The notes under the pieces are model-generated. The model made no database searches. It worked only from the letters and a program-made list of their open reading frames with translations, and was not told the DNA's origin. This document shows, one piece after another, positions 6,495 through 52,571 of a DNA stretch of 60,378 nt; the first letter of the stretch is position 1, and every line of letters starts with the position of its first letter. This DNA comes from an uncultured Planctomycetia bacterium. Its GTDB lineage: Bacteria; Omnitrophota; Gorgyraeia; Tantalellales; Tantalellaceae. The position numbers and the translations under genes were made by a program. The DNA is taken from assembly GCA_964527555.1 (NCBI GenBank), contig CAZGOG010000007.1, positions 1-60,378 of the forward strand, written 5' to 3'.

Positions 6495-6554
6495 AATGTA
6501 AACTTACAAGTTAAGAAATAAAAAAGTTTAAGCTAGGTTTTTGTTTATTCAATC

Positions 6555-27500: not shown

Positions 27501-30092
27501 GATTTAGTGCATGAAACGGTGCATCTCCTGCCGCATCAAGTTAAGCGTCATCAGCAGCATTTAAGAATGCCGCAGGAGCTAAGGAACGTACGCGACGATC
27601 TTGGCATTTACTTTGAAAGCGGAGATGAAGCCGACAAAGCGCGCGAAGGACTGAAAAAACTCATAGCGCTTATGATAAGGAATGAGTTTGAAGCTTGTAC
27701 CATCCAGCATGAATACCGAAAATTTCAGGCATTGAACCTAGGGTATAGCAATCTAAGAGAATATTTGGAGGCGCAGCTTAAAAAGGCTGATACTGCTGAG
27801 CGTAAAAAGCGGTATTATGGTATTCTTATCAGAGGTACAGGCAGAGACGATAATTTAAACGATGAGTTTATGATAGCTTTGGTTAGGAGGATATTCCCCC
27901 TCCAGATGCAGCAAAGGGTGGACAACATGGCTACATTTGAGGGCGTACTGCATTTTGATGCGACCCAGTTCAACCCATGGATGTTATCATGGCTGAATGA
28001 TCCGCAATATTGCGAGGCAGAAACCGCTAAAGCCGAAGATGTTGAAGAGGACCCGGAGAAAACCGCGCTTGAGATCCGAAACAAAGTGATCAGCGCCGCC
28101 GAAAAAGCGCGAAGGCGTATCACCGAGGAAGGATGGATCACGTCCGAGCAGAAAAATGACATAGCGGAACGCCTGGAGAGTTTTATAGGGAACCCTGTTA
28201 TCGAGCTAACCGGGGATAAGAAGTCTTTCCCGCTGGAAAGCGTATCAGTGTCCCCGGTTAAATGGGCTCTTAAGGTGCATTTTAAAGCGGCCAGCGAGAT
28301 CCCGGAAGAGGATCTTGAATCATATCTGGTGAGAGAGGCTTATCGCGTTCTTCCGCGCCAGGAGGAAAAGCGCAGGAAGATAATCGAGGTATACCGGGAA
28401 TTTGCCGGACCAAAATTCCGTCTTTTCTTAAATACCCTGACGAGGAAGAAGGAGCAAAAAAGTAATATAGCCAGGCGCAGTTCGAAAGCGTTTCTTGCCG
28501 GCGTCATCAACGAGGAGTTCGAAGCCTGTTCCGTCCAGCAGGAATACCGCAGGCGCCTCGCGCAGGAAGGGGGATATGAGGACCTTAAAGAGTATCTCCG
28601 AAACGCCAGGAGCCGGATAACGTCAAATCCGGCGGTGAAGAAGTTTATCGAAAAAATAAGTTTTTACACGGCGGAAGACGGTACATTAAGACCGGAACTC
28701 AGGATAGCACTACTTGAAGAAGAAGCTTCGGTCAACAGTAATGTAAAAGAGATGCGAAACGCGCTTATGAGCTTTGAGAGGATTTTCCGCGGGTGTGCGA
28801 AAGAGAAAAAAGAAAAATGGTTCCTTTCCTGGCTGGCGGATCCCGTATATTATGAGGCGCCTCTCGCCAGGCCCATTCCTTCAGAGAAGAAAGAGACGAA
28901 AGCAAAACAGAAAAAAGGCCGGCGGTCTGAAGCCATAAAAAAGAAGAGCATACAGGAAAGGATCAAGCACCTGCGTTTACTTGTAAGTACGCTTCCACGC
29001 ATCCGTTCGTTCCGCCTTGACCAGAAGAGCATATGCCAGATGAGGATAGCTAACGCTTTTGAAGCTTTCCACGGCAAAAGGATACTGGAGGCTGTCGTAG
29101 CCCTTCCGTCGGAGGTATATGCGAAGCTAAATGCAGATGACCTAAAGAAGCTTTCCGCGATAAAAGGCGTTGCGGAGGTAATCTGCCTAAATTCTTCCGG
29201 TGAAGAGGAGATGATGGGCGAGCTGCAGGCGAGAATAAAGGGAACCAGGCGTATGGGGGCTCTCATAGACGAAAAAGTCCTTGAAGGGGTGCGTGACGAG
29301 AATCTAACGGGTGAACTAGAAGCGATCATAACTGATTTTATAGGAAAAGTAAGTGATGATATTGCCCCAGCGTCAGCAGAAACTGTTGAAGAAGGCACAG
29401 CCAGCTCTTGCGTAGAATATATAAAAGACATAGCTAAGAAGAGAAATGAACATTATCTGGTGCACTTTGCGGACGGAGAGGACCTGCTTTCAGGTAAAGG
29501 CCCCATGATCGTTCCTCCGGGGCTTGAGATCGAGAGGCGTCGCGAAGCAGAGAAGATAGAAGACAAAATAGATCCGAATCACGATAAGTTCTTCATAGTT
29601 GCGCCGGAAGGGACCAGTACTAAAGAAGAAATAAACACCTTTAAAAGAGGCGTTATGGATCTCTGGATGCTTGAAGGCGTGGTGAGTGAGGATGATATTA
29701 TAATACTTCCGAGGAAGAAGGAAGGATACACGACAAGTGACCTCTATAAGTTGCTTGCGGATCATGCCAAGGACGGGATAGAGCCGGCAAGTAGTAACAC
29801 TGGCTTCATGTCGCTTAGCGGAAACTTGCGCTATGACGACAGTGCCGCGGAAAAAGACTTATTGCAGCTTAATATTGCTCCGGAAGCTAAGAGCAATATA
29901 AACCAGTATACAGTTTTCGTAAATCTTGTGCTGTCGCGGGAGGAAAACGAGATAAGCTATAGAATAGAAGGTCTTGAAGAGATCAAGAGCGGACTGTATA
30001 TCTACTTGCCGGAAGCCAGAGCCATTGATCTTGAAAGAGAAGTTAGGAATTATTACTACAGGCATCTTAGAGAGATACTAGTAAAAGCGTAA
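6555..30092 (+). CDS. Giant multidomain membrane protein G2 (7845 aa): signal-like segment, EreA/ChaN/Tiki-like domain, internal Tat-like motifs, large internal duplications, YD-like repeats, processive GT2, CBM-like domain, five zincin modules, shared C-terminal domain
   Basis: Uninterrupted ORF in the track. The start may be the ATG at 6588, which has AGGGA 6 nt upstream. Confidence 0.96.
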   Translation: MAGEYIKQGICMDIQNNRKSHFHEKTFHYKEVCPFFSSTKEDNSNYGIADWKKRNAFFIKCVSILLSIIFFHQQAGWTQEGKPVWTEIKSYDAYHEKLDNTSIDIPYDVANTQEALANGGDEVIINIQDAHASLAAQYSIAKLLDSLVANYDLEFIAIEGGSGYIDTSLLKTFPDKKVRDKAANILMEEGHMSAGEFFAVTHDESEIDLYGVEDDALYNANVESFRAVAGDRIERVDNINKLLKELENIERKVSSNELYTFSENCARHRDGEFSFSDHWKYIENLAENKKIKFNPEPELAKLVEAIRLEKTIDFSKANTERKRLIDSLSDIIGKAELEALVKKSLDFKENRISQATFHTYIIDLAAKHNIPADGYTNLIAFAEYVDIYESVDIVKLYRQMANLEKTVKEKLYRTGEEREFYALKRMLELAKKLYSLELTNDECADIESGYKDFTPARYASFIKDASSKYSLAISGDYDLSEVFNSIDEALNFYRDAEARNSAILANTVKRMRSSGKRVAALITGGYHTQGLTELMRQKKLSYLVVIPKFEDKRERPYIAILTNRKKPYEKVLETGKYQLAIEAIFRDKMDRESQKALFSLTYDLTMRDASIKPGERERKRRIWIEAYEARYDMLVELKGKRDMAKKMTPNEFRAFLAGKAAEEDSRKEGEKTAAEKTEEEKITEIVDFVIANDPDLYKLISRLLPTGNETTVKIRDEISVRLRSKGLEPTEDNILKVIRRLEIHYIENTTTSEPVIEVKFGREEPVQLSIRMSELAGEFADYVAFVKGGGELQDLAFTSEDRKFIEEKLTLLKTDLQALAVFEADDETRQLILRHTDLAIGALYSGLNTYPPDIREEVEDITFTYGSSRLIKDIVISCDTFEKAEDLAMKIGLYDGKTKREYSHTEIMALKGSFQLDEETVDEDDARRQFVVVKDWQVSRRDFLKGAGLGILAGSLLVSDENTALAEKPNGNLRMGQPEVLAGRAGTFKYVKRPLYDNGHELGVAIIRYSEKDPKGELILYNSYEKMLKARGVDMRYLPPEPRTKVNPGVLKEPVQRILSLLESEYPTEMKGDEEEKGIKGLNKVIKAERWCQIWADICSVHRMNEERAKEHLEGMYGFLKMVIKETKKRNERRLSGLNKRHPRERKVKMEFPSLMAAIMYDVLPFSETGEMNNRFLGLPEMLMLADYLQLELEKDICKNYMYTIAGVEEGKVEISEERVWQGRIEKTKFFDIIEDLTDKRYYWHMRVAMKTISGDIYKEGYQHNGDWEDYIGRLAVLEASRKSFFGYKDSEFYKRWRAKAGETLGDYNRRILRDNIDELDIVYRFMITQDLSPDEMEKLAPFLHGLEPELDNIFGSYEDEKAPELIRPWHGSYLAVILDNLKRLPYKPDYGPIVESEVREVRALLHVGRLLNAAKGLEVIELLKKKLGIDEIRKNLNKKMEFLLWMVKELQLSQDQMPDIYTAAHYVKILQTIPSLIKEGPDKGKYISTKYDEEAYYKRGEKIDKEIIKYYVVYYPPEGSEPVGKKKYKTFTPIVDQDGTREVHVTYGEDTYAREIWRVNDDAAESFDVKTAAINGKLVNKVIYKNGLRIIETVDDVDTPKGGVTVDARWLYDVFSKVFPRLATEKVKKFYENIIVPFIELVYPLAALSLLAKVQGVPLMSFDLGSSMAVAALMAAGAVFVTSHIIGLSTIINKLTGRAPPKIERASLIISTLISLARVFIILPVAVVVTNLCFGRPDLTIFVYLALDWLFHAKISSSAPGIMKWIERRTRKDVIKGEGKGQLRRDFIKEVLSFLTGGALIPAGDKTVAGESQAEGELKVAEKLPEPPEEVLEGLKMPMIDPKKTAAYYIPPDSKTGRVLFSSDKHKIYVHFYDDLKDPNFVYISSTAKKDMVVIDGVYHHIWSVYKVKEKSTEVGGMVHIDKMKIIGKAIKLKFDGHQIIDEADQPKEGGKEPEEIPEKAPEVSGEITFSSKGETALLKGLGAGETLGEPQLLAENTVLQQGCIKYPIYREGAEVGAAIVDVSPVMGELHESVISKVYFNETDKLIDLRRTPPEPRTKIDPEALEGPVKDILALLEREYPQEMTGQRKDGTSVEGAKALNGFVGIHRTEKRPGWCEIWANICSVHRMREEVAVEHLKGVRVFLEMIIGELKKRNTRREEEGKKKMELPPVLGQGMYGLLPLDETGEINNRFPGLPEILMLADFLQVQLIKHRFENTDIPDSLPHRIVSPESLFDLWINKKCEGIDTGIFSIVEDLSDGKDIIRARAQMKIKGAYIYDNMYQHYAGADKIGRLAVFDAAMECFPGYKRWKARPGESLYDYYYRIWMRNKDDLNIFYRFIVNQDMSPEELKRLTPFLRDLDPQLEEIFGSYEEMPLEDLGKEWHGATLADFLEQHKGERKKLDESMMVKVQAEDISGLLHTDRLLNAARGLGIADEVKKGVSPGKIQKELDKKIAFLKEIVRDFQKAQGQTPSIFTASHYVKNLQTVPALIQEGEYKDDKYISIKYNERDYYDKDIKTVQYYVLYNDELGKESFKTFTPMVDQDGRREIHVTYGGDSYAREIWRVDKDAAESFDVKTGRINGRLIERLENINGVRIIEPVKDTEYVKEGVTVHTRWQRVVATILLGTFGVTLPYEAGAAAMNAAILAAEVQTQRQLQLEIAEELPKPSPELLKDFEDAIANPKSPASYYIPPGSETGRVLFSALDRIYAHFYDDLKDPKFIYETSMAEDDLLEINGKLHHVWSVYEVVRKSTDSEGKVQIDETKLIGEVINLKFDKDTHQAASKGDRFANINTREVTYKTPDGKEHSDYYRYVKYVGDAPEGLKEYIFKRKKLDDGKFHLVAALDPKKADVTTDGELIIKGDEKDAIVKEYKYDKDYTWQYDCNLKTKNIFASPYNRVATKATSNAIVKLKSLSGYEDADGFVLPYDRGAFLKNVLEEYGYYPDGSLMWKKDHVNKQYTLYTEYTMLGRLCRLSGTIYDYTPETDTKGEELRSFSGYSEYETETFFAVIKGNPGVYYRTLKGAERADALLEASPNPQAGRMDITGILKEFEYNADGSLAKVWDYKLGEVAVYKWHRKFGTEKKLTDIGGDIYKFDGRKKETSGEPLRSFNGITDKTGAFFERTDEPDVYYWTEQGKLRAKALVKAKPDEAHDLMLVEKVIKHFKDSQIEIDGKNRIFELSIPGSLTKGERFICYGVEVEDPKSGKKLEDFGVKVEAVWQGKDAPISGIKVLEYYKQNMIPGKEKYAGNFGVDVYVLEDGKVAEKPFKTFRKLGPNSAERDHISKVVNDYADKYPENNLGRASDEELLNALFNVEGYEEGDDAFLRDVIDRALEMRGVLDGIFKQNNIKVLEQDKTLQNEILSHILYWTAAEDIDFDELLEKLPEASTIKGLMEYIHRKHKDFDNLLKEERYVIVLDTLTGCAKTMVETGRSKKDMEVVLRVWIRYEDESGTGAMNAGDVYKEIESGTSAIRNREYVWDIVKIGLAVTGILFLAAVFLRILRSLNSTKRIRALGPPAAGAGDAAALAEGAADAGEDAAGSPEEAGHGFAPKTVRVPMIIAGAALVLSWFMYTNDWSMWLVIPLAIISLYVLARSYALLHNGIRANMMVYGMSPWEAFNTELSFSVKRGGRYDTDAFEVLPATTRFFPPMFTRGILQILDYMLEVFDVLKDFKVSQLRDYVIDEYRIPISKKGRVAKTGDFVVEKVLDVKEDDTPSTFILGKTTPGAAMQEIIKRHESIRNHILALPALYLPAIFGYHRILVFLGLGSKRSGKKLFNRPINPPNKWAVKLKVKTRDDIEKEIKARRKTRDDKAQDFVGDISFDTEKAFKKAHYALNPRFKWPGFKGLVNVDYRWNLWGAGFLLTGAFIVYHNAMKVWTSGDWGGFGISAWVVAAVFMLLSGIINRKLIWDKAGFIVPFVSGLTVLMVNLLATSVIGGWTGFGLPMWGFGAFLVISSLIVGFKIKRGVWYPTEEKQTEALKILARQLGDIIEKVKEKITYGDDVLKAEQWKEVFNFPVRAPFGDPEDAVNIQMVEIDFLGYLEYCRDWTTFFTTSPNKNKYYFFSKYHTPPYDPQYFLPTFWVKGPAFTQLRTNMRRDGSPTEFISYGPAGDLTVQEGRGLPSIDTSIPALTAAVEGEEGNEENLGMIALMPGTEEETTVQFGPQYNLAYEPITHETPHNGQIAYRNSYQTAPWDNILKMLDQAKARLKDIKEAGERRYGEDFDPDNMAQYRQASQDDKKKILYAETRSVDSFKGFGGPGPESSSYIKFMKRHKLTIIFMSALFVLGTYGVYIGKSVLMSWNWIPDMTGMSIGMHTGSVFLAMVTIYMVMISIEKLILFFSKFFGNPEAITDEDILSVPPRILVELISEIEVKMRNEGRPIPSYLANINQLRVNVNNAGPVGDQAREQVRNIIMQASLETGNWAQRFHQNVSNFKWGYRNLSFSRKAAFFVPYLLALFILQIVHRVFGLYYFIARKGRILAEEKPTLWFLNRLRLETPLLKVISLINRPRHTVIGILEERRYLTPQQAADLRAVRGRFTNEDVLEHLNINAINHILKDNYISRRYGSLLRTGIVMDTTFGGTTGDNLWRMAKSAVDSYPGGVDVYLIFDDNDAVGLKQFEDTVQKIRNDPTMGDRVADRIYRLTFPAPLANLELTQRSQRMKPPMNVEAVMAIQHDFVLRHREPPEFMELVDQEDVLGELNLVTKACIRDIRERHVQEQLYLGCTTQEGLRWGIDYDKAVYGTAISRFFGRIFGNTPLSGLFPTGLAGEYHDMIEALTREANYPNTLIDLIRLKNTPGATALPWATSNNADERIRYILWCFLKSAGTKKEFIEKEFRRRNMPSVIQSELRQVPIKDPEWSKYSYMDYLIWHSTIQTGQTRLGFLFLGGTGNNFEWEDLSGVIPRLDANHNLTGFDFINWRHYFNFLLRPQREEIQREETIQHNRKKEEGLSFRPDLLVTRPSAIYREWVNKYMPTGTWDLFNIIEDSELGSRIALRGQKSTRLEGLYTQILEDELPAEGIKWWLQRSRWISVQTFSAVISHRPAAFMFFGQHIFAALAWGLIGTKLTLIPGIIAVLIAFYAGGWFSYFVGIGVSRLFRRIGWERNEQWQTDPLKTMGGFFLGWWRFQNMAYLSSAAFAGLAAGITLLVTALYFGITIFSTSFFVCLDGGIFQLLSYVTSTNLGTIPTMENWLITTMFGIIFFLNPQVQQTLMGWIVASINAPEDEESTRQQLWARIEDRGFRKLFGFDNEWILDPNNPPAAAVIHGPYPPINIDKYRDEGAINQLLARYHRFALNAIERNAQEIQDLLIEWTPLLLGKDTIQAMLTEIAHATSRGIKEEDFVKDKKIYAFLLKEWKTFISARGEHDFYEFIERRAKASRDGNIDPAINTANMFLFNSWKEFNAARKKQPVDPGKIGSIYVYKNAMMQAITESKSLWGYTHGRVTIGLKGALTGLGMLALTWWVLSALYLIPAFVTTTFIVLGLVMIIGWMVSLFVSIFIDNPNWKAGRSPQSKIGRLAYHGTMWFLRIPLMLIYFSGMIVAAAFAIYTALSAWVNEAFWLRGRQRISVTFLPGDRPTLANYIDVAILKSRAEGWAYFLILVAFFVICGLPAVKALEQERVNAIRTVTIEPIWQEFIKTPNENTARRLYDFAYWDAVKRDKGGVDLRLDSSGLIISKLGLREEKKMTPDEADTVFKGALIWIQAYRKALYDAGEENSLNAQYAFERVINGFETFCQRYEMMDRFEKYFPTEAISLLGEGFTATCDPDPGEVGLDATKKELLIKPDLEKDYIWIWPDSKAGNILDVYFDLPPEMVTIDMEGKEFVFEFFVPEDQMSAFTGRSIKAFYVDTEGRDCDVGGEEEIIQYEPLPEHQREQGTLVRVNVAPDKRSPSGFNFMAKRFFIRIDGNQNRPVSGESIRIISPRVQSRISLLDRLNYDWQNLNLFGTKTAPPRGQITPPPAQEVKPPAKPTIGSKRAQKAQRTSWLKRISHEAAQRVKEINQMRAAKPKVSRRGYSHGGRKPWGRTSLDIMLPEVLITAVIAIVVAILTLGVETNLVIYTVAAILVFSAAFMGALSLGAGIKYLRNKHPEELTPLEEGIRRSIKYYAPDVELQEEEAEEEQHFQALIDPAKAPQYYSEEIVFNASGYTGNSVDDIKEYLREENGTAVSVEGPKIGEITVVKNFEADARIAAQLVTYGINIKQLIQKDLAKAIRIRGPNLFQGLEDREMSLVLLDKSPSIFEDHKKNNFIGINRVLFDKIAKNTSKEVLEILLITGILHELRHEAGEGDEEKITKEDVSLIISLAAQKGVTIRSIIDVINLVSGESLLVEELEKTPSINVLAVKMITNAANRAIKNIEEKGWITTTHKDGILNLLRQIARGDVPCGTVYDTSLSYTERIMIDSLGRTRVEINTALFFNHSDMEHEADIVHEVVHFLPHQVAMIPLVNQLLPQVIGIQNSLSERAFSERIKADIDLREMNKRLWAIKVQGEAEAHSIGYEYCKNALHQESIKFKDYLLEKADYLEQVAVRGDVAARANRWLVQHLTEEGALDSRFKLWVMKIALHENTMNIIRQIAEAEGVDTSDETQYEQWLLAWVNNPEYGGIEPEGVKTEAPETAVSKRIKKVAGIVIQHMEKDGWIVSSHKEELIALLKEITEEGKFELFNDPARGMVMWIDEKRDNILQVNTALIGMYSDQEMESILIHEMFHRLPHQIKRRRRINEILEELKRKKPAADVFFWRNEEGNEVRELLKRLIALRIRNEVEAWSIQHEYRKHIAESLGFTDVRDYYRKCARETTSPGIREDSNIFIRTTQDDGTLGGEFKWMLLSIILLPLGASVARGLREMLKNTATAEGILSSDENQFKAWLLSWIDDVKYCEVEPEATPVKPLPAETVKPTQEPTESDVRKRMTRIASEVIRHIEKDGWITTEYAGDIVGVLRDIIEKGDFEIYNEPNDPWGLKVSPASHGAGHVLKANRPIIAMDSDEELETDLVHETVHLLPHQVKRHQQHLRMPQELRNVRDDLGIYFESGDEADKAREGLKKLIALMIRNEFEACTIQHEYRKFQALNLGYSNLREYLEAQLKKADTAERKKRYYGILIRGTGRDDNLNDEFMIALVRRIFPLQMQQRVDNMATFEGVLHFDATQFNPWMLSWLNDPQYCEAETAKAEDVEEDPEKTALEIRNKVISAAEKARRRITEEGWITSEQKNDIAERLESFIGNPVIELTGDKKSFPLESVSVSPVKWALKVHFKAASEIPEEDLESYLVREAYRVLPRQEEKRRKIIEVYREFAGPKFRLFLNTLTRKKEQKSNIARRSSKAFLAGVINEEFEACSVQQEYRRRLAQEGGYEDLKEYLRNARSRITSNPAVKKFIEKISFYTAEDGTLRPELRIALLEEEASVNSNVKEMRNALMSFERIFRGCAKEKKEKWFLSWLADPVYYEAPLARPIPSEKKETKAKQKKGRRSEAIKKKSIQERIKHLRLLVSTLPRIRSFRLDQKSICQMRIANAFEAFHGKRILEAVVALPSEVYAKLNADDLKKLSAIKGVAEVICLNSSGEEEMMGELQARIKGTRRMGALIDEKVLEGVRDENLTGELEAIITDFIGKVSDDIAPASAETVEEGTASSCVEYIKDIAKKRNEHYLVHFADGEDLLSGKGPMIVPPGLEIERRREAEKIEDKIDPNHDKFFIVAPEGTSTKEEINTFKRGVMDLWMLEGVVSEDDIIILPRKKEGYTTSDLYKLLADHAKDGIEPASSNTGFMSLSGNLRYDDSAAEKDLLQLNIAPEAKSNINQYTVFVNLVLSREENEISYRIEGLEEIKSGLYIYLPEARAIDLEREVRNYYYRHLREILVKA
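6900..8200 (+). other. Conserved N-terminal domain of G2 (EreA/ChaN/Tiki-like pattern), paralogous to G3 30600-31900
   Basis: IQDAH (His 6945), IAIEG (Glu 7029), RNSAILANT (8049), ALITGGYH (His 8133); nearly the same sequence is in G3. Confidence 0.6.
9369..9452 (+). other. Internal twin-arginine (Tat) signal-like sequence 1
   Basis: SRRDFLKGAGLGILAGSLLVSDENTALA|EK: full S-R-R-x-F-L-K consensus, hydrophobic stretch and AxA site, about 940 aa into the ORF. Confidence 0.75.
9520..14402 (+). repeat. About 620-aa internal duplication in G2 (A1 9520-11387; A2 12567-14402)
   Basis: Shared strings include PPEPRTK, W.EIWA.ICSVHRM, NNRF.GLPE.LMLAD, KTFTP.VDQDG.RE.HVTYG and YAREIWRV..DAAESFDVKT; short identical nucleotide stretches are also present. 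Confidence 0.92.
11904..12002 (+). other. Internal twin-arginine signal-like sequence 2
   Basis: LRRDFIKEVLSFLTGGALIPAGDKTVAGESQAE, directly after a four-TM module. Confidence 0.55.
12006..14879 (+). repeat. About 120-aa internal duplication in G2 (B1 12006-12365; B2 14523-14879)
   Basis: YYIPP.S.TGRVLFS...IY.HFYDDLKDP.F.Y...HH.WSVY.V...LKFD in both copies. Confidence 0.9.
20330..21640 (+). other. Processive GT2 glycosyltransferase domain in G2 with all catalytic motifs
   Basis: YP..VDVYLIFDDND (20337-20381), KP (MKPP), DQED (20619), LGGTGNNF (21204), WDLFNIIEDSELG (ED at 21498), QRSRW (21618); flanked by TM bundles. Confidence 0.88.
25371..28860 (+). repeat. Zincin array in G2: one HELRH module plus four tandem repeats of about 275-290 aa
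   Basis: HELRH 25371; HEVVH 25824, HEMFH 26643, HETVH 27510, degenerate REAYR 28332. Each repeat begins ..E..GWI and ends WL.SW...P.Y (AW in repeat 1), with a downstream E.EA helix. Confidence 0.88.
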
Positions 30093-30122
30093 TAAAAAAG
30101 GTTCGGCATAAGATCCCACCAA

Positions 30123-30180
30123 AATCGATTGCCATTTATAAGTCTTTGTAAATAAATGACTTGTAAATGGCGGTACGATT
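30123..30180. repeat. Long imperfect inverted repeat after the G2 stop (terminator-like or REP-like)
   Basis: GCCATTTATAAGTC (30131-30144) / GACTTGTAAATGGC (30158-30171), extended by AATCG/CGATT; no adjacent U-tract. Confidence 0.6.
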
Positions 30181-30268
30181 CCCATCAATTCTTTTTAACT
30201 ATATTTTCAGATAATTAAAAGGAAAAAATACAAACTTTTGTTAAATAAAAAAAAGTAAGATTTGTTGT

Positions 30269-30297
30269 TTGACCATCGATTTTAATTGTGTTATAGT
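30269..30297 (+). promoter_or_regulatory. sigma70-type promoter with extended -10 for G3
   Basis: TTGACC (30269-30274), 17 nt spacer, TGn, TATAGT (30292-30297). Confidence 0.65.
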
Positions 30298-30373
30298 GTT
30301 AATAATTACTTTAGTTAATCATTAAAAAAGCTAGATATAAGTTATTTTTATGTAGTATCAAGATTGTTTTGAT

Positions 30374-33300
30374 ATGGGAAAAATGGATATGTATAGAAAA
30401 CATATAATATATAAAATTATCTCTGTCGTACTTATCCTCGTGTTCATCCACGAACAGATCGGATGGACCCAGGGAGGCAGGCCCGTCTGGGCTGAGGCCA
30501 GAGAATATGTCTCCACATACCGCGATAAACTGGACACTTCGAATATAGACATACCTTACGATATAGCTGAAAAGCAGGATGTTCTTATTAATGGCACCGG
30601 CGAAATAATAATAAACATCCAGGATGCGCACGCCTCGCTTTCGGCGCAGTACTCCATAGCAAATCTCCTGGACTCACTTGCCACTAATTACGATCTTTCG
30701 CTCATCGCGGTGGAAGGCGCTTCAGGGTATGTTGATACGTCCATACTCAAGACATTTCCCGACAAGGAAAAAAGAGATAAAACCGCCAAGGAGCTTATGG
30801 CCGAAGGACGCATGAGCGCGGGTGAGTTCTTTGCGGTAACGCATGACGAGACGGAAGTGAGTCTTTACGGCGTGGAAGAAAGCGAGCTTTACCGGGCGAA
30901 TCTTGACAGTTTCAGAAGCGTTGCCGCTAACAGGGCCGAAAGGATCGCCAATGTAAATGCGCTCTTAAAAGAACTTGATTCCTTAGGGGAGAAGGTCTTT
31001 TCTAAGGACTTCCGTGATCTTAACGAGAAGTGCCTGCTTCACCGGGAAGGGAAACTTACTTTCACAGGTTACTGGGAGTATATCAAAGACTTCGCCGGGA
31101 AAAAGAAAATCGCAAAACCGGAAGGAAAAGAGCTTGCCAAGCTTCTTGAAGCTGTCGGACTTGAAAAATCCATAAATTTCAGCCGCGCAAATGACGAAAG
31201 ACGCATCCTTATCGATGAGCTTAGCGAAAAGATGGATAAAAGCGGTCTTGAGGAGCTTGTCAAGCGGTCAATCGCTTTCAAGGACCAAAAGATCTCACAG
31301 GGCGAGTTTTACTCGTATCTTCTACGCCTGCCGGAAAAGTATGGCATAGGCCCCGAAAAATACACTAATCTCATAGCCTTTGCCAAATACATAGCCCTTT
31401 ATGAGTCGATAGAGATCTTCAGGCTCTATCATGAGATAGAAGCGTTCGAGGATGGTATTCGCCAGGAGCTTTACCGTACAAGCGATGAGATAGAGCTCTA
31501 CCGGATCATCAAGATGGTGCGCCTTGTTAAGCAGCTGTACAGCATGGAGCTTACCAACGGCGAGTACGAGTATATAAAAACGAATCATAACGGGATCAAT
31601 GCTTCCGGCGTTAGTGCTTTTTTAAGAGATAAATGCAATAAGTATAAAATCGCGATAGAAGGGAGCTATGATCTTTCAAGCATATTTGGCGGCATAGATG
31701 AAGCGCTTTCCTTCTACGAGAAAGCCGAGATGAGAAATGCGGCTATGCTTACCAATACCGTCAGAAGAATGCGCGCTGAAGGCAAGCGCGTCGCGGCACT
31801 GATCACGGGAGGATACCATACCAAGGGTCTTGCTTCCCTTATGCGTGAAAAAGGGCTTTCCTATCTTGTAGTTACCCCAAAATTCGAGGACGGTAAGGAA
31901 AGACCTTACATCGCTATCCTTACCAACAAGAAAAAGGCCTATGAAAAGGTGCTTGAAACCGGCAAATACGAGTTGGCTGCGGAACTGTTTTTCCAGGACG
32001 TGCAAGATACCTCGGATGGGGCAAAGAGGATGGATTTTATTCTGAGGCGCCTTTTCCCGGGTGAAGAGAGAATACCAGATGAATCCGCCCGTATATGGAT
32101 AGAAGCGTATAAGAACACGTATCAAAGGCATGTTGATTCTCTTCCGGAAGAAGACATGGCAAAAAAGATGACACCGGAAGAGTTTGAAAAAGAAATAATG
32201 AAAAGAGCGGAAGGTGAGGTTTCCGTGAAGCAAGCGCCTGAAGAAGAGGCGCCAGCCGTATCGACCGGCGAAAAAGAAACAGAAAAAAAGACGCCCGCAG
32301 AAAAAAGGCCCATGGGAATAAAAGGGCTCATGATAGCTTACTGGGTTTCACTCGGCATAATGGGTTTAAGCATAATAGACGTCATTTGCTGGGTGGAAGG
32401 CGCGGCACCCCTTACAGTTTATTGCGCGTTCAGCATAATGAGCGCGGTCTATGTAGCAGCGCAGGTAATCATTGCGCTAGGCATAGACAAGGCTTTTAGA
32501 AAAATAGGCATCAAAATATATGCAGACGAAATAGCCTGGACGGAGAAAAAGAAGATCGTTGTCACTCCCGCGTTTTATGTTCTTTCGAAACCTATCCAAA
32601 AACTCGTTCTTATCCATGAAAAACTTCACACCTCCGGACACGGCGAAACAGCCGCTTATGCTTTGGCGCCGTTTCTTCTGGTCTTATATATCGCCTTTCC
32701 TTCTCTTTCATGGTTCAAAGAAATGGAACCGTCAAAAATCATCTTAAGAGAAGAAGATAAAGAAGAGGAGTGGCAAATAAGAAAACTTAACCCCAGACTT
32801 GACGCCGAGATCCTCAAGAAAACGCCGCCTTTTAAAAAGCGTTATATCACTATAAGCGATCTTCACGGGATCTACCCGGCCGAGCTCAGGCGTATGCTGA
32901 GGAGCGTGGGATTTATAAGCAGCAAGGATGAGATAATCGCCCGTAACACGGTGGTGGTTATCGGGGGGGATACTATCGACAGGGGACCGGTATCACTGGA
33001 GCTCTATAAGTATGTGAGATATCTGCAGGAAGAAGCGCAAAAAACCGGCTGTGAAGTCATACGTCTTCTGGGCAATCATGAGCAGATGTTATATGACGGT
33101 ATGCGGGGCAATGACGAGTCTTTACTTTTATGGGTATACAATTTGTATCGAAGCGGCGACGAATGGGGGATAGACGCTTTTGATTATTTTTACACCCAGA
33201 AGGCATATTATAGCGCAGACACCGGCCAGGGTAAGGCGGACAAAGAAACCAGCGAGAAATTAGCCGTAAGCGGCTTAAGAGAGAAAATCAGAATGAATAC

Positions 33301-36300
33301 CAAGTGGGGAGAAGTCTCCCGTCTTCTTGCGGAAGATATAGAAGAGGGAAAGTTCAAGGCCGCGCACGAATGCAATAATGTACTTTTTGTCCACGGAGGA
33401 ACTACGAATGCGCTTGCTAATTATCTTACTATCGTAAAAAAAGGATATAGCGCTAAGCTGGCCGCGGATGCGCTTAATGAAGAATTCCGCCAGCACGTAG
33501 AAAAAGAGGGCAACTTAAGCCGTCTATCGCGCTTACGCCAGGCTCTCTGGGATAGATTCACGGGTAAACGGCTTCCGTCTCATGACGATCTTAACCCCGC
33601 GGAAAGGAACATAGTAAACGGAAGCGGTATCGACTATCTTATGGTCGTCGGGCATGCGTCCGCCAAGCAGAATGGACGGATCCGCGTTTCACCATACGGT
33701 AACGTTATCAATGTTGATACCGGGCATATCGATGCATGGGGCGCAGATCACGGCTTTCTTGTGATCGAGGGGAATGATTTCTGGGCAGTTGAACTGAAAC
33801 AGCCCCAGGAAGAGACCACCCGGGAGTTCATCACAAGGACTACTGAAAAGCGTCCCGGGATCAAAGAAAAGCTTGAAAAGGTAAGAACAGCCATAAATGA
33901 GAAGAAGTACGGGGAAGCTGGTAGGGAGATAATGAAATTAGTTAGGGAGCTAGAGTTTATCTTAACGTACAGTAATTCAATAAGGGTAAACGAGCTGAAT
34001 GAATTAAGAGAAAAGAGCATGACAATTTCGGAAGAATACTCCGAGCACCTGGAGATATCCCTTATAGAGGATTTTGTTGCGGAGATAAGGGAAGCAACTT
34101 ACAAGTTTATCTCTTCGCATGAGAAGGCGTTTAGCCTGGAGGAGATGAGAGAAATCGAATCTTTTCTCTCGAAAAGGTTTGACGAGCTCAAAGAAAACTG
34201 GGCTGAAGATGCTGAGGCAAGAGAAATACTCCGGGAAATAATCAGCGAAACGATTAGTTTTGTCATAAAACACGATTCACTTTACCCCAACGAACGAAAT
34301 GAGTTCGAGGCCCAACTAAAAGAACTGTTTTCAGGATACAAGGGCAATGATAGCCAGGGCGCTTTAGCGGTAAAAGCTCTAAAGAGCCTCATGGCGAGAA
34401 TAAACCGGGAAGAGGAAAGGATTTTTGACCCTCTCATTTTTCTCAGGGAACAGGCGGAGACCATAAAACGTATCGCTGAAAAGCTTGCGGATCCTAGACT
34501 TGCCATCGATCCCCGCCAGGTGCGACTATTCATGAAAGAAGAGATGTTTCCCGGAGAACGGGCAGAAGATCTTAACGGAAAAGTACGCGAAAGAATTGCG
34601 GGACTCATCATGCCGGAAATCATCCCGACTCAAAAAAAGGACATGATCGTCGGGGTAAGATACCGGGCCTTTCTCGAAGAGATCAAGAAAGAATACGACA
34701 AGATACTCGCCGGAAGAACCGCAAAGTATGAAAAACTCAGGAAAGCCTTCGGCAGCGTGCGCAATGCGCTTAAAAAAACGCGAAAATTCATAAGGCGCAA
34801 TAGGTTCCTTATAGCGATCGGTATTACATTGGCCGCTTCCATTATGCAGGCTCTGGGTATAAACGCTTTGGGTGAAGGTGTTTTTGCAAGCGGCGTGATG
34901 ATGGCCGCGGGCTCTGGCGAAGAAGACAATGGCGAAAAAGAAGCGGATGATGCCAAAAAGCCGAAAGAGAAACCGGAGCTTCCAGTACATGAAGCGGGGC
35001 ACATAGCGCCTTTTTCCCTGGCCGATAAGGCAGAAGAGGCTGTTCCTGTCCCTCACGGATGGATAGCCAAAGCATGGGATGTCATCGGCAGAGCTTTGCC
35101 CGGCGGTAAAACCGAGACGCATAAAGATATCGTCGCCAGGGTAATAAGCAACACCGCCCATCAGGATACCGAAGATTTTGCCATTGATGTTTTAGAGGAA
35201 GGGGAGGAATCGGAACTACTAATATCTACTCGAAAGAGACAGGATATCGACCGGAGAGTAGAAGAGATGATAGAAGAAGTGTGCAGAGCTGCGGACATAA
35301 AAGACATGAATGCGCTCCAGCTCCAGCACGTTTATGAAATCCCGGTGACCGATTATAATGACCGCAGGATTACGGTAAAAGTGTACTGCTATAAGCCGAA
35401 AAATAACTATGTCATAGAAAAAGCTACAGATCGGATCAGGCAAGCTGCCGGAAATTACAGGGGTAAAACAAGTATTCCCAGCTATACGACTTCGGGCCTG
35501 TTTGCCCGGCTCCGTATTAACGGCGGGAACGCTGTTGTCCCTCAGAAGGATTCGCTGAAAAATCTACCCGAGGGTATGACCGGGAGCGACTCATTTCTCC
35601 CCCGGATAGCGTATGCGATAGCAAAAATAGAAAAAAACATCGAAAAAATGGGTGAAGATACGGATCTTGAAACGCCGGGGATGACGGATCTTTATTCAAT
35701 ATTGCAAGAGTTCAGTAAAACTGAAGCACAAGCTGGAGTGGGCGCATATAAACGCCTGGCAGGTATTATCAGAGAAAAACTTGTCGAAGTTCAGAGGAAC
35801 ATAAAAAACGCCGAGGAAGAAATAATCCGGATAAAGAAGACCAGTCAGGAAGGGGTAGATCCCAGGGAAATTGAAAGAAAAATAACTCTTCAGACTAAGA
35901 TCAAAGACGGTGCGGTTATGACGGAGGACAAGCTGCGGCAGCTCTGGTATTACATAAATAATCCTAGAGGCGACTATATGGCTGAAAGCCTCAGAATAGA
36001 GAAGGCCGGTGAGACTCGCGCTCCCTCCAGGACGCCTTTAGTTCTTATTGTTGATAACCTTACGCCTTCACAGCTTGATTACATAGTCAACAACCACTAT
36101 GTTGAGGCATTTGTCACAAAAAAAGCCACAATTACTTCACACTGGGTCATAGCGGCTAAAAATAAGAATATCCCGGTAGCTATCTTGGACATGCCGCCCA
36201 TTTTAGAACAGTACAATAAAGAACCCGCGGACCAGATCACGGTAGAGAAGGATTTCATTCATAAAAGAATGGTGCTGATAAGGTCTGATGCCAATCACAG

Positions 36301-39300
36301 CGCTGAGGTGGTATTTGCGCCTAGCATGGTAGATTGCAGGAGTTTCCGGGATACACTGCTGCAAGAAGAGGCGTTTTGGGAATTTGTACAAGCAGAGATG
36401 GAAGAGATCGTTTCCGGCGGAAATGACCAGCCGTGGCGCGACATAAAGCTGGAAGGGACAGAAGCGGAAATCTCGCTTCTGGTAAATGCCGATACCCCGG
36501 AAGACATCAGAAAAGCCAGAGAAGAGAACCATGCCGGCGGAGTGGGGCTTGTAAGGACGGAATACTTGTTCAGCAGTGACGGGGCAATCGATGAAAACGG
36601 AGAAAGGCCCCTCGTTGATTATCTGGAGAGGTTTTTCGGTGTCAAGAAAAACCCCGAAAAACCCGAAAAAACCCTGAAAGAACTGCGCGAGTCGTCTTTT
36701 TTGTACAAAAAAACACGGGAAGCCCTTAAGGAAAAGATGGTAAAAGACTTTGTCGCGTTAAGCGAAGCCGCGGCAGGGGCGCCCGTTACCATCAGAACGA
36801 TAGATTTTCAGCTTGATGATCCAGGCAAAGAGACTTTAATACACAAATATCTTAAAACTGCTGATTATGCCCGGAAACTCTTCGCCATGTGCGAAGAGGA
36901 AGGTCTGACCCAAAAGGTGGAATCAGGCGTTGATTTCTACAAAAATCCACTGGGAAGAGAAATCCTGCAACTGCAGCTCGAAGCAGCTATGGAAGCGTAT
37001 CTTATAAGCAAAGAGAAGAACATCAAGATAATGTTCCCCATGATAAGCACAATAGCAGGAGTCGATAGGCTTATATCCAACCCGGATAGTGTATTGATGC
37101 ATGCCAAGATGCGGGCGCTTAAGGATACTAAACAGGAAGGTGCTGATGAAACCAGTTTTGACGCTATCCCTATAGGGATAATGGTAGAGACGGATATGGC
37201 CGTAAGGAACATCAGCGAGCTTGTAGCGAGAAAAGAGATAAGTTTTTATTCTATCGGGACAAACGATATATCGCGCTACCTCATGGCCTACGTCAGGATT
37301 ATCGAACAGTATATCGAGCGATATATCGAAAAACTTAAGAGTAAATCTCACAACATCGATAAAAGCAAGATCAGCGATAGAGTAAGGACGGAACTATCCT
37401 TAAACTACGGTGAGTCTGTAAACTATGAAGACTTCTTGATACACCTCATGAATGTCGCCAGATATATTAAAAAATACAAAAGCGAACACGATGATAAAGA
37501 CCCGGAGATAGGCGAGATAGTAAAAGCGTTCAAGGGAAAGCAATATGAATCATTTCCGAAACTCGATGAGGTAGTGGTGGAGCCCCTGAACAGGGACGAC
37601 CCGGATAATGCGAAGTATACGACGACCCTCCAGCAGGCCGTTTTGATCGCCATAACGATTGTTTTAGGCACGATCGCGACATATAACGAAAATAAAGCTC
37701 CCGACGAGAGGAAAGAGCTTTCCATCTGCGGTGAAATGGGAAGCTGGTATAACTTCCAGGTGTTTCTTGTGAAGAAGTTAATGAAGCTCGATATAGTGCC
37801 CGGTCAGGTTCCCTTAAGTCTCAGCATGGCACGCGGCAGGATACCGGCTGTTAACGTTTTCATACGCGGGATTAAAGAGCATCATTTGGAGACTGTCGAC
37901 ACTTTCCTGGAACCGGGAAAAGACATTTTCGGCGCTATACCGGTGGACCAGATGGCGGATGGAGTGGTAGAAAGGGTGTTTGAAGATATTTTTGCGCAAG
38001 AGAACGGCGATAGAATAAGCGTTCCGAAGATGTACGAGAAGTTAAAGCAAGAGCTCGCCACTAAAGGAATAAATGAGCTTAAAACCCCGGATGAGAGAAG
38101 AAAGCGGACGCTTTACACGCTGGAACTATTAACCAGGCTAGGCGGTCCGGAAGCGGTAGGGGAAACACTCCCGACCGATATAAAAGGGGATTTTCCGGTT
38201 TCCAGTAAACTGGATGAAGAAGCGATCGCAAAAAGAGGCCGGGAAATATTGACTGAGCTTGCCAAGAAAAAAGCGCAAAAAACAGAGGATAGCGCCCTTA
38301 AAGCGGCAGAGACTTTCGTCATAAGAAGCAATCAGGGACTGCACCCGAGACCCGCGTGTGCAATCATCGACAAAGCGGAAGAATATGGGGTCCTCCTCAA
38401 GTATATAGCTTATAAGCCGGAAGGGGAGGCGGCTGAGGAAGCCGGAGACATACTTCTTAGGACTTCTGATGATAAATATCCGGACCGATTGTACGGGACA
38501 CGTGCGCTGCTTGAAAAGAGTCTTTTAGAACTGGAAGCTACCGGTGAAAGAGCCCGGGAATTTTTGGATGCGTTAACCAGCGACGACATAGGCGTATATG
38601 ATACAGACCCGCTGACGGATACTGTCATGAAATTCATGGAGGTTTCCGAGGAGAAGCTTTCACCCGAAAGGTATAAAGAAGAGCCGGGTCAGCCGGGAGA
38701 GAAACTGCCCATCAGCACGAGAGGACTCATCCTCTCGGGTCTTTTTTCACTTTTTTGCACTTTAATAGTAACAGTTCTTGCCTGTCTTGTCGCAGAGATA
38801 ATAAAACAGCATTATCTCTGGATTTTTATCATTGCCTCCGGTTTCATATTCCATTTTGCCTATAAATTCGGCAAGGACTGGCAGCTGGCGGATGTAATAA
38901 TAAGGGCTTATGAAACAGCAAAAATAGCGCCTGAAGAGGTTTACCCGGCATGGACTGAGGATGAGACGATACATGTTTTCGTTAATGTTTATGATGAGAT
39001 CAGCAAAGAGTTCCAGGTGAAAATCCACACGCACGAAAAAGCGCATGTATTTTTAAACAGGCTTTTGAAGAAAGTAGGATTGCGTCAAGGCAAAGTCCTT
39101 ACCGCGATAAATCACTTTGCCGCGTATCAGTTTCCATGGCTTGGGCGTTTTGCTAAAGACGTAAAGACCCAGCCGGAATTTTATAGAAGAAAACCGGTTG
39201 CGCCATCCGAAACGAAGACAAACTGGGTTATCGAAGTCATCACCGTTTGTGGGGTTCTTTTGATCTTCGGGGCGGCTTTTATTTACATGGGTTATAAGGC

Positions 39301-52563: not shown

Positions 52564-52571
52564 GGTGAGTT

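Follow-up and report, generated by a model that had tools for sequence, protein, structure and literature searches.

Results and Discussion

A module of Enzyme I followed by HPr lies inside a giant membrane protein

The DNA stretch analyzed here (the window; 60,378 nt) raises the question of whether Enzyme I (EI) and HPr of the PTS, encoded one after the other within a single giant ORF, form a working phosphorelay and, if so, what it serves. The protein, p2 (Table 1), has about 12–14 hydrophobic helices in its 7,277 aa and is, as a reading made from the sequence only had stated, a giant membrane protein. From Met6 onward, it is identical to the database protein P0121 (cluster of n = 4; longest contig, 144 kb). 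The conserved EI-HPr unit spans about aa 1545–2765 (nt ~35006–38668), which exceeds the interval given in the sequence-only reading (35600–38580), and is bracketed by TM helices (aa 1478–1496 and 2789–2807). It belongs to a conserved N-terminal core of p2 consisting of the leader, an N-domain, an ApaH/PrpE-like metallophosphoesterase, and EI-HPr; past aa ~2840, p2 contains nothing common to its relatives. The giant ORFs and the stand-alone EI-HPr proteins have a tail domain at the C-terminus in common.

Table 1. Features of p2 and its EI-HPr module (positions refer to the window).
Feature	aa	nt	Strand	Remarks
Giant ORF p2	7,277 aa	30374..52207	+	signal-peptide-like leader; host of the EI-HPr module
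TM helix	1478-1496	34805..34861	+	directly 5′ of module; N-flank 8 K/R, C-flank acidic
HExxH motif HEAGH	1539-1543	34988..35002	+	between TM helix and module
Small alpha/beta domain	~1581-1691	35114..35446	+	order a-bb-a-bb-a (AF2 model); kept in relatives
Strand and four long helices	1709-1715; 1742-1862	35498..35962	+	AF2 model; position of EI's HPr-binding alpha subdomain
PEP-utiliser mobile (swivel) His domain	1889-1957	36038..36244	+	Pfam PF00391; candidate phospho-His, His1923 in T-S-H
Motif TSH	1921-1923	36140-36142 (His1923 codon)	+	
EI-type PEP-binding TIM barrel	~2031-2505	36464..37888	+	Pfam PF02896; PDB EI matches
Motif VRTE	2060		+	frame 1 of ORF
Motif IRTID	2140		+	frame 1 of ORF
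Motif MVE	2270		+	frame 1 of ORF
Motif GTND	2295		+	frame 1 of ORF
Barrel insertion, ~95 aa	~2306-2402	37289..37579	+	between N454/D455 and R465 equivalents
Motif CGE	2452	37727	+	frame 1 of ORF
Conserved linker	~2506-2640	37889..38293	+	motifs FL..D..G.IPVD..A..V..KVF..IY, ERTLYTLELL
HPr-like domain	2642-2764	38297..38665	+	candidate phospho-His, His2657 (nt 38342-38344), then Arg2659
Motif GLHPRP	2655	38342 (His2657)	+	frame 1 of ORF
Hydrophobic hairpin	2789-2807; 2815-2833	38738..38872	+	directly 3′ of module
Second HExxH motif HEKAH	2887-2891	39032..39046	+	flanks module, between TM helices

All motifs previously listed for the module lie in frame 1 of the p2 ORF and do not match by chance: Pfam, the PDB, and a family profile support each of the three domain assignments (EI His domain, PEP-binding barrel, and HPr), and both histidines are intact. 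In p2, the PEP-utilizers mobile domain (PF00391) scored 24.4–27.9 bits (cutoff 23.1) and the PEP-utilizers_C barrel (PF02896) 93 bits (E 1.9e-26; cutoff 22.8); the His domain aligned to EI residues 153–206 with an hhalign probability of 97.8, and the matches of the module to the EI profile were collinear over profile positions 155–547. The best sequence matches in the PDB were PTS Enzyme I (E 1e-11 to 1e-13), with PPDK at 1e-5. EI was also the top-scoring NCBIfam family, albeit at 80 bits where the curated cutoff for PTS_I_fam is 341.7, and PtsI scored higher than PtsP (59 vs 35 bits). The designation as PTS Enzyme I thus holds in the sense that EI is the nearest family in all three resources, although the module is highly divergent from it. 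With E. coli EI (PtsI; PF05524 + PF00391 + PF02896; PDB 2HWG) it shares the T-S-H swivel domain, the PEP barrel, and collinear equivalents of catalytic residues (R2061=R296, R2141=R332, K2152=K340, E2272=E431, N2297/D2298=N454/D455, R2407=R465, and C2452=C502), whereas an equivalent of R358 was not identifiable in the module. It differs from PtsI in that identity is only ∼25%, far below curated cutoffs, in several insertions, in ∼160 additional N-terminal residues that form an alpha/beta domain, and in having HPr fused to its C-terminus and being placed between TM helices of a much longer protein. The insertion in the barrel is missing from every relative with <90% identity.

The HPr-binding alpha subdomain of EI was not detectable by sequence (PF05524 gave no match, and hhalign covered only residues 153–206), nor did Foldseek return EIN. 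The strand and four helices preceding the swivel domain could be aligned weakly to EI residues 39–204 by profile and correspond to that subdomain by position, homology not being demonstrated. The predicted order of secondary structure (AF2 model) is nevertheless EI-like: a strand, four helices, and the swivel domain with its His at a helix N-terminus. The small alpha/beta domain upstream weakly resembles ACT/ferredoxin-like folds (Foldseek sub-domain matches with TM 0.4–0.5 and prob 0.8–0.95) and carries the conserved motifs DTExF, ATRxR, and RRIxVxVYCY. It may be a sensor domain; an extra N-terminal domain also precedes EI in EI-Ntr/PtsP, although there it is GAF, which the domain in the module is not.

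HPr is assigned firmly at the family level, but the copy in the window is borderline when taken alone (PF00381, 22.0–22.3 bits vs a cutoff of 23; profile positions 3–29 only). PF00381 matched all nine family members, and a profile built from these nine copies retrieved only HPr, NPr, and Crh from the PDB (best E 1.2e-10, over HPr residues 2–78). Likewise, the top 34 Foldseek matches of the AF2 model (pLDDT 77) were all HPr or NPr (TM 0.59–0.74). Shared with HPr/NPr (PF00381) are the open-faced beta-sandwich, a His that N-caps helix A and precedes an Arg (G-L-H-P-R-P) and, recognizable in relatives, the G-x-x-G...G-x-D/E C-terminal half. Unlike these free proteins, the domain is fused, has a disordered insertion of ∼20 aa (loop aa ∼2694–2708, as predicted), and includes an additional beta strand region at its C-terminal end. 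As already remarked on from the sequence, it has no Ser46 motif.

The fusion is a feature of Candidatus Omnitrophota, and its catalytic residues are conserved

An exhaustive HMMER search for relatives turned up some 14 related modules in further long proteins, and all relatives bearing a source name were Candidatus Omnitrophota; PGAP and IMG annotate relatives as 'HPr family phosphocarrier protein' or 'PTS EI component'. HPr was missing from five of the 14 related sequences, two of the five being fragments. In the stand-alone protein P0136 (1,051 aa), whose ORF is complete and preceded by an in-frame stop, the signature motifs are the same but there is neither a TM helix nor a leader, which argues for a function in the cytoplasm. 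The EI-HPr fusion is a lineage feature of Candidatus Omnitrophota, occurring both as soluble proteins of ∼1,050 aa and inside long or giant membrane proteins.

The order of the domains, EI before HPr, had been called atypical, and it is. It was found in 17 of 33 long proteins and in every Omnitrophota protein with both domains, whereas the four conventional multiphosphoryl proteins among the matches run HPr then EI, as do those described ((EIIA)-HPr-EI or HPr-EI, usually with EIIA; PMC2405797). The module has in common with these proteins (FruB(HI)/MTP, DhaM, FryA/PtsA; PMC2405797) that EI and HPr share one chain, as for an intramolecular relay from PEP to His to His, but it lacks EIIA and is part of a membrane-anchored giant.

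Across 12 full modules (27–35% identity), 42 of 1,221 positions were invariant, among them T1921, H1923, L2059/R2061/E2063, R2141/D2144, M2270/E2272, G2295/N2297/D2298, R2407, and C2452-G-E; K2152 had a single exception. The T-S/A/E-H pattern was found in 13 of 13 sequences when one shorter sequence was counted. In the nine HPr copies, only G16, H18 (His2657), and G85 were invariant, and Arg17 was kept in eight. The sequence-only reading named a lack of conservation of the histidines in orthologs as a refutation, and the relatives do not provide it: His1923 is present in all 12 modules and His2657 in every HPr copy. That invariant positions cluster on catalytic and phospho-acceptor residues, against a background of ∼30% identity, is to be expected from catalysis rather than from scaffolding. 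As the two phospho-histidines and almost every catalytic residue are kept, the module is probably a working PEP-driven phosphorelay, and to call it a private one, as had been proposed, is a reasonable inference from this conservation, although no acceptor is identifiable.

A proposed regulatory phosphorelay and its alternatives

The segment is best explained, with a probability that we consider somewhat better than even, as a divergent EI-type PEP:protein phosphotransferase with its own HPr-type phosphocarrier fused C-terminally. PEP and Mg2+ would bind the barrel via R2061, R2141, K2152, E2272, N2297/D2298, and R2407, with C2452 as the proton donor; the swivel domain would be phosphorylated at His1923, and the phosphoryl group would pass to His2657 of the tethered HPr, either in cis or across an EI-type dimer. 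P∼HPr would then act on an acceptor not recognizable by sequence. Neither EIIA, EIIB, DhaM/K/L, PRD, nor HPrK domains were found anywhere in the 60 kb, so that the relay is without visible output; for EIIA and EIIB, which had not been recognizable from the sequence either, Pfam gave no match in any of the four giant ORFs. Searching all six frames with our own profiles, no second EI or HPr was found in the window. The most likely role would be regulatory, the PEP/pyruvate ratio being signaled elsewhere within the protein or to the cell. This is plausible by analogy to permease-less regulatory PTS branches (EI-Ntr/NPr/EIIA-Ntr; Brucella, PMC2937029), which also pair EI with HPr without an EII permease in sight, and the small alpha/beta domain may stand in for the GAF sensor of EI-Ntr. 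The module differs from these branches in lacking EIIA-Ntr, in being fused and membrane-tethered, and in its lower score for PtsP than for PtsI.

Instead of regulating, EI-HPr could be a dedicated phosphoryl donor akin to DhaM, with P∼HPr serving an enzyme-like domain of the same or a neighboring giant, so that PEP rather than ATP powers a membrane-anchored assembly. In its favor, p2 also contains a P-loop and a domain resembling class-II FBP aldolase, p3 contains HAD-IIB-like and APH/homoserine-kinase-like domains, a multi-enzyme, sugar-metabolism content has been reported for Omnitrophota giants, and the His domain has a weak NCBIfam match to DhaM. However, DhaK/DhaL and EIIA-Man domains were not found, the DhaM match (E 0.006) extends over nothing but the generic swivel domain, and with nothing shared past aa ∼2840, the module has no co-varying partner domain; we consider such a donor unlikely. 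A pseudoenzyme or scaffold, kept for structure or binding (for instance as a sensor of PEP or pyruvate without turnover) and devoid of phosphotransfer, would account for the extreme divergence from EI (80 bits vs 341.7), the loss of the R358 equivalent and of the HPr-binding subdomain, the lineage-specific insertion of ∼95 aa next to active-site residues of the barrel, the relatives without HPr, and the lack of an acceptor. It is similarly doubtful, as the few invariant positions amid ∼30% identity are concentrated on the residues for catalysis and phospho-acceptance. Least probable by far is an enzyme of the PPDK or PEP synthase type that converts pyruvate and PEP into each other, although PEP-utiliser domains of Omnitrophota giants have been described in this way. 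Among the domains that West-Roberts 2023 reports to be frequent in these giants are PPDK_N and 'pyruvate-diphosphate kinase domains', and barrel and swivel domains are common to EI, PPDK, and PpsA (NCBIfam PPDK 47 and PpsA 46 bits). Yet EI scores higher (80 bits; PDB 1e-12 vs 1e-5), the swivel region has a helical insert as in EI, HPr, the substrate of EI, comes next in the protein, and ATP-grasp (PPDK_N) was found neither in the window copy nor in 11 relatives, which excludes a PPDK/PpsA architecture.

On which side of the membrane the module resides bears on a further reading, namely that EI-HPr is exported or host-directed, consuming PEP or phosphorylating or titrating foreign PTS proteins outside the producer's cytoplasm or within a host or prey. 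A Sec-signal-like leader (basic n-region, ∼16-aa h-region, then [IV]xW[AT]|[QEAG]G) is conserved in p2, P0124, P0125, P0129, and P0132. Together with TM parity, it places the module outside the cytoplasm, where PEP would be absent, in p2, which shows a strong positive-inside bias at TM1478, and in P0124, which has no TM helix from the leader to aa 2443. Glycolytic-type domains of Omnitrophota giants have been predicted to be extracellular and the giants linked to predation (West-Roberts 2023, bioRxiv 10.1101/2023.11.21.568195), and the shared tail domain could be a targeting signal. However, hydropathy-based sidedness is inconsistent among relatives (P0132 and probably P0129 are predicted inside; flank charges are mixed), P0136 has neither leader nor TM helix, the same authors call such topology predictions unreliable, TM-only giants have been read as mostly cytoplasm-facing (2026 preprint, 10.64898/2026.06.07.730766), and no delivery mechanism has been shown. 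Export is, in our estimate, rather improbable, and the earlier suggestion that the module drains PEP or phosphorylates foreign PTS parts, which depends on its side of the membrane, is speculation.

Like the Omnitrophota giants described (10.1101/2023.11.21.568195; 10.64898/2026.06.07.730766), the locus comes from Omnitrophota and combines giant ORFs in tandem with many TM helices, HEAT repeats, and highly divergent glycolysis-type enzyme domains, here FBP aldolase. Those papers, however, mention a generic 'kinase/phosphotransferase cluster' besides domains of the PPDK type, not an EI-HPr relay, and with 7.3 kaa p2 does not reach the length thresholds set there; SecA-DEAD and C39 domains were not detected in it. 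HExxH motifs occur three times in p2 (0.15 expected), each adjoining a TM helix.

An EI–HPr module in a giant ORF and its relatives in Omnitrophota

The window is nearly filled by four successive + strand ORFs, p0 to p3 (see the table of features), the third of which, p2, hosts the Enzyme I (EI)–HPr module; residues of p2 convert to window nucleotides as 30374 + 3 × (aa − 1). Kyte-Doolittle scans found ∼12–14 hydrophobic helices in p2. Very long tandem ORFs, many TM helices, and divergent enzyme-like domains were observed, as in the giant membrane proteins of Omnitrophota, and the relatives of the module that are named by source are all Candidatus Omnitrophota, including "Ca. Makaraimicrobium", which points to an Omnitrophota origin of the window as well. 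Several public assemblies contain the p2 protein, there beginning at Met6: it forms a 90% identity cluster of four members, with a longest contig of 143,948 bp, and JGI 3300017963 contig Ga0180437_10000932 carries one copy. p2 is therefore a genuine gene that recurs, as opposed to an accident of assembly.

Features of the four ORFs and of the EI–HPr module
Feature	Residues	Window nucleotides	Strand	Remark
p0	at least 2,051 aa	40–6195	+	possibly extending further upstream
p1	7,845 aa	6555–30092	+	
p2	7,277 aa	30374–52207	+	host of the EI–HPr module
p3	at least 2,603 aa	52569–end	+	runs past the window end
p2 leader	1–35	30374–30478	+	conserved in relatives
Metallophosphoesterase, p2	∼825–945	∼32846–33208		calcineurin-like
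TM helix, p2	1478–1496			upstream of module
EI–HPr module, p2	∼1545–2765			extent of homology
Mobile His domain, p2	1889–1957			PF00391
T-S-H, p2	1921–1923	36140 (His codon)	+	motif check
PEP-binding barrel (Pfam match), p2	2031–2312			PF02896
VRTE, p2	2060		+	motif check
IRTID, p2	2140		+	motif check
MVE, p2	2270		+	motif check
GTND, p2	2295		+	motif check
Insertion, p2	∼2306–2402			window lineage only
CGE, p2	2452		+	motif check
GLHPRP, p2	2655	38342 (His2657)	+	motif check
Hydrophobic hairpin, p2	2789–2833			downstream of module
HExxH sites, p2	748, 1539, 2887	32615, 34988, 39032		
HEAT repeats, p2	∼5800–5860			
Aldolase-like domain, p2	∼5937–6324	∼48180–49345		two matched pieces
HExxH sites, p1	4172, 6273, 6424, 6697, 6986	∼19068–27512		
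HAD-IIB-hydrolase-like and APH/homoserine-kinase-like domains, p3	1890–2069 and 2330–2480			
C-terminal domain, p0		∼5070–6195		
C-terminal domain, p1		∼28980–30092		
C-terminal domain, p2		∼51100–52207		

An exhaustive HMMER search covering 1.84 billion representatives returned the p2 protein itself and ∼14 related modules at E < 1e-28, which reside in other long proteins (1,515–6,413 aa) and in some fragments; weaker EI-like modules were found in further long proteins, and ordinary PtsI ranked next. None of the giant relatives came up in a word-indexed homologue search, which returned ordinary PtsI only (∼580 aa, ∼25% identity), and the module was not found in a scan of GTDB genomes. Recognition of EI and HPr domains in the relatives is already known from automatic annotation, as some of them carry the PGAP or IMG label "HPr family phosphocarrier protein", "putative PEP-binding protein", or "PTS system EI component"; the first of these names can hide proteins of 1,000 to 7,000 residues. 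The sequence-only reading had placed EI and HPr at nucleotides 35600–38580, where the module indeed lies, but homology among the relatives is wider. All motifs that it named were present where it had put them.

Conservation of both histidines in the relatives had been set beforehand as a test on which the sequence-only reading could fail, and both are kept. Across 12 full-length modules, 27–35% identical to the window copy, 42 of 1,221 positions are invariant, T1921 and H1923 among them (His1923 in 12 of 12). So are the counterparts of E. coli EI L294, R296, and E298 (L2059, R2061, and E2063), R332 and D335 (R2141 and D2144), M429 and E431 (M2270 and E2272), G452, N454, and D455 (G2295, N2297, and D2298), R465 (R2407), and C502-G-E (C2452-G-E); K2152 (K340) has one exception among the 12. 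Nowhere in the module is conservation higher than at the two histidines and the EI catalytic set.

The Enzyme I half

The barrel was recognised by the Pfam family PEP-utilizers_C (E 1.9e-26; 93.3 bits versus a cutoff of 22.8), and the swivel domain by that of the mobile His domain (24.4–27.9 bits versus 23.1). When a profile of the N-region was compared with one of 40 PtsI proteins (hhalign), the swivel domain aligned with EI residues 153–206 at a probability of 97.8. In a sequence search of the PDB, PTS Enzyme I ranked first (6V9K, 2HRO, 2HWG, and others; E 1e-13 to 1e-9), with PPDK at 1e-5. NCBIfam scores were 80 bits for PTS_I_fam, 59 for PtsI, 47 for PPDK, 46 for PpsA, and 35 for PtsP, all of which stay below the curated cutoffs: TIGR01417 reached 80.1 versus 341.7 bits and PRK11177 59.3 versus 824 bits, and those for PPDK, PpsA, and PtsP were likewise far under.

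Against a profile built from 120 ordinary PtsI proteins, the module gave four collinear matches (positions 155–310, 301–340, 370–476, and 493–547 of 581). A Salinivibrio PtsI of 575 aa, in which the key residues stand at E. coli positions, served as a check on the numbering of residues. Because of the ∼95-aa insertion, which occurs only in the window lineage, MAFFT and hmmalign misplace the window barrel at its end; equivalents of R465 and C502 were read from the alignment of the relatives, and the segments that carry them complete the barrel past the insertion. An equivalent of EI R358 (on the NPxLGxRAIR strand) was not found, and EI profile positions 341–369 were unmatched; the relatives carry a "G.DFY" strand at this place, without a conserved arginine.

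The region upstream of the swivel domain

An AlphaFold2 (AF2) model of aa 1540–1965 (pLDDT 73.6) consists of a strand, four long helices (aa 1742–1862), and the swivel domain, in which His1923 lies at the N-terminus of a helix. This arrangement points to a helical insert where EI has its HPr-binding subdomain. The EI HPr-binding alpha subdomain itself (PF05524) was not matched in the window copy or 11 relatives, nor did Foldseek return EIN for the model, and a weak profile alignment of the N-region extends to EI residues 39–204. The presence of this subdomain is not claimed, as hhalign of the N-region against the PtsI profile aligned the His domain only. For the whole 426-aa model, Foldseek gave low TM scores throughout and matches to sub-domains only, namely, ACT/ferredoxin-like folds and the swivel domains of pyruvate kinase or rifampin-phosphotransferase. 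The former correspond weakly to a conserved small alpha/beta domain at aa ∼1581–1691 (a-bb-a-bb-a).

It was also considered whether the ∼340 aa that precede the His domain could be the ATP-grasp domain of PPDK or PpsA, which Pfam, the PDB profile, and the AF2 model rule out: PF01326 was not matched in the window copy or 11 relatives, and the N-region profile matched EI, not an ATP-grasp fold, in the PDB. As the upstream alpha/beta domain is not ATP-grasp, the PPDK/PpsA architecture is excluded.

The HPr domain

A conserved linker of ∼135 aa separates barrel and HPr; of the 14 related sequences, nine have an HPr-like domain after the barrel. PF00381 scores 22.0–22.3 bits on the window copy (cutoff 23), covering the first strand and the His helix only, and is matched by all nine copies of the family (best E 4.6e-11). 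In the PDB, a profile of the nine matched HPr, NPr, and Crh only (best E 1.2e-10, HPr residues 2–78). The AF2 model of the window HPr (pLDDT 77, pTM 0.73) shows the HPr order of secondary structure, and its top 34 Foldseek matches in the PDB were all HPr or NPr, with TM(target) of 0.59–0.74; AF2 and Foldseek together give the beta-alpha-beta-beta-alpha-beta-alpha open sandwich of HPr. A loop of ∼20 aa was modeled with low confidence. The counterparts of HPr His15 and Arg17 stand in G-L-H2657-P-R2659-P, the histidine being residue 18 and helix A beginning at residue 19 of the model. Only G16, H18 (His2657), and G85 are invariant in the nine-copy alignment, and the arginine two residues past His2657 is kept in eight. 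In the sequence-only reading, a Ser46 motif was not evident, in agreement with the lack of a conserved serine before helix B in the window copy and relatives.

Fusion order and domain context

When our own EI and HPr profiles were run on all 275 fetched proteins, EI was followed by HPr in 17 of the 33 proteins longer than 1,400 aa, one of the 17 having two tandem HPr copies. HPr preceded EI in four conventional multiphosphoryl transfer proteins (P0112, P0118, P0150, and P0261; 804–1,011 aa), and a survey of such proteins describes IIA-HPr-EI and HPr-EI forms (PMC2405797); both bear out the earlier remark that EI followed by HPr is atypical. p2 thus resembles them in having EI and HPr on one polypeptide, but lacks EIIA (no Pfam match) and has the order EI then HPr, as opposed to (EIIA-)HPr-EI. 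The fusion is not peculiar to p2, as it occurs in other Omnitrophota proteins, of which P0136 is of ordinary size (1,051 aa). Its ORF is complete, being preceded by an in-frame stop, and encodes neither a hydrophobic helix nor a leader; the signature motifs of the module (TSHW..AK, G.DFY, CGE, and G.H.R) are present. The occurrence in ordinary-size proteins indicates that the order is a lineage feature of the phylum that was built into long and giant proteins. In two long, more distant Omnitrophota proteins, variations were seen: P0140 (3,018 aa) has EI and then two tandem HPr domains at aa 2317–2526, and P0139 (5,098 aa) has two EI-like modules.

A TM helix and a hydrophobic hairpin flank the module within p2, with an HExxH motif just inside each boundary region. 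BLAST against the relatives defined a conserved N-terminal core of leader, N-domain, metallophosphoesterase, and EI–HPr module, and nothing past aa ∼2840 was common to them. Leader and N-domain are 32–42% identical to those of four relatives (P0124, P0125, P0129, and P0132); the N-domain (∼600 aa; motifs INIQDAH and ITGGYHT) had no match in Pfam, the PDB, or NCBIfam. The metallophosphoesterase, also present in the relatives P0122 and P0125, is nearest to ApaH/PrpE diadenosine tetraphosphatases and PPP Ser/Thr phosphatases. None of the four ORFs yielded EIIA or EIIB, which the sequence-only reading had not recognised either, nor DhaM/K/L, PRD, or HPrK domains. No second EI or HPr was found in any frame of the window, and PTS genes were absent from the neighborhoods of the relatives P0124, P0136, and P0278 in the DNA covered.

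A probable tethered phosphorelay and its alternatives

The best-supported reading of the sequence, and a fairly probable one, is that the module forms an active, tethered relay of the EI/HPr type, in which the phosphoryl group would pass from PEP to His1923 and on to His2657. By analogy with permease-less branches of the PTS (PMC2937029), its output would most likely be regulatory or PEP-sensing. That it is a dedicated phosphoryl donor to other enzyme modules is unlikely, and a pseudoenzyme or scaffold is improbable to a like degree; conservation in this otherwise fast-evolving protein is highest at the catalytic residues. An enzyme of the PPDK/PpsA type, to which the NCBIfam scores of these families would point, is highly improbable, as ATP-grasp is lacking and EI scores higher in both the PDB and NCBIfam. 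The likely misreading of such modules as PPDK-type enzymes is thereby corrected.

The side of the membrane on which the module works bears on whether it could be an exported or host-directed effector. p2 shares with P0124, P0125, P0129, and P0132 a Sec-like leader (basic residues, ∼16 hydrophobic ones, then [IV]xW[AT]|[QEAG]G). If this is a Sec signal, TM parity, with four helices between leader and module, puts the p2 module outside, which the eight K/R residues on the N-side of TM1478 fit. Parity likewise places that of P0124 outside (no helix before aa 2443), but that of P0132 inside and that of P0129 probably inside, and flank charges are mixed in other relatives; sidedness by hydropathy and the positive-inside rule is contradictory between relatives. 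The same puzzle was met for glycolytic-type domains, and such predictions were called unreliable (West-Roberts 2023, 10.1101/2023.11.21.568195), whereas TM-only giants were read as cytoplasm-facing in a 2026 preprint (10.64898/2026.06.07.730766). The conserved leader, TM parity, and a shared C-terminal tail domain all point outside the cytoplasm, but the leaderless, soluble P0136 argues for cytoplasmic function, and an exported effector is quite unlikely. Less likely again is a role beyond the producer's cytoplasm, in which episymbiotic or predatory Omnitrophota would use the module as an effector that consumes PEP or hijacks a PTS on or within a host or prey cell; if so, a PTS phosphoryl-transfer chain would be put to interbacterial or inter-domain use, whether in attack or in sensing, which has hitherto not been described.

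Few bacterial phosphotransfer proteins are as well understood as EI and HPr, which occur here in reversed fusion order, without an EII partner, in giants of a host-dependent, uncultured phylum. The conserved catalytic residues make the tethered relay, PEP to His1923 to His2657, a directly testable prediction, which is rare for parts of Omnitrophota giants. It bears on whether these giants are active metabolic or signaling machines and, together with the topology, on which side their enzyme-like domains work. West-Roberts 2023 and the 2026 preprint describe PPDK-type and glycolytic domains and a "kinase/phosphotransferase cluster" in the giants and do not mention EI or HPr, and literature searches tying Omnitrophota to PTS, EI, or HPr returned nothing relevant. 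New here is the order EI then HPr, without EIIA, with a new N-terminal domain, and membrane-bracketed within giant proteins.

Other features of the window

p0 and p1 (nt 40–30092) comprise ∼9,900 ORF residues that are essentially without a Pfam match despite many TM helices; the sole one is a weak, sub-threshold SprT-like match in p1, which also has three repeats of HE.xH..PHQ[IV]. HExxH is ∼20-fold over shuffled expectation (three versus 0.15 in p2, five versus 0.2 in p1), and in p2 every site is located at a module boundary beside TM helices. The motifs may mark embedded units that resemble Zn proteases, or places of self-processing. A related C-terminal domain ends p0, p1, and p2 (p1 versus p2: 33% identity over ∼370 aa, E 3e-53), all three closing with ...IY[ML]P...[IV]D[LF]E...[REQ][EQ][IV]L[VI][KR]A. 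This domain, which could serve in assembly or targeting, has counterparts in stand-alone Omnitrophota EI–HPr proteins: the tail behind HPr matches that of p0 in both P0136 and P0277, and in P0277 the final ∼50 aa additionally match the C-terminus of p1.

Further downstream in p2, HEAT repeats precede a class-II fructose-bisphosphate-aldolase-like domain, whose match is split in two by an insertion, and a Walker-A-like motif (GAQACGKRS) follows it. p3 (nt 52569–60378) carries HAD-IIB-hydrolase-like and APH/homoserine-kinase-like domains. The spacers at nt 6196–6554 and 30093–30373 are AT-rich, and similar promoter-like strings (TTGACxxxx...TGTTATAxT), seen by eye a short way upstream of each start codon, suggest a separate promoter for each giant ORF.
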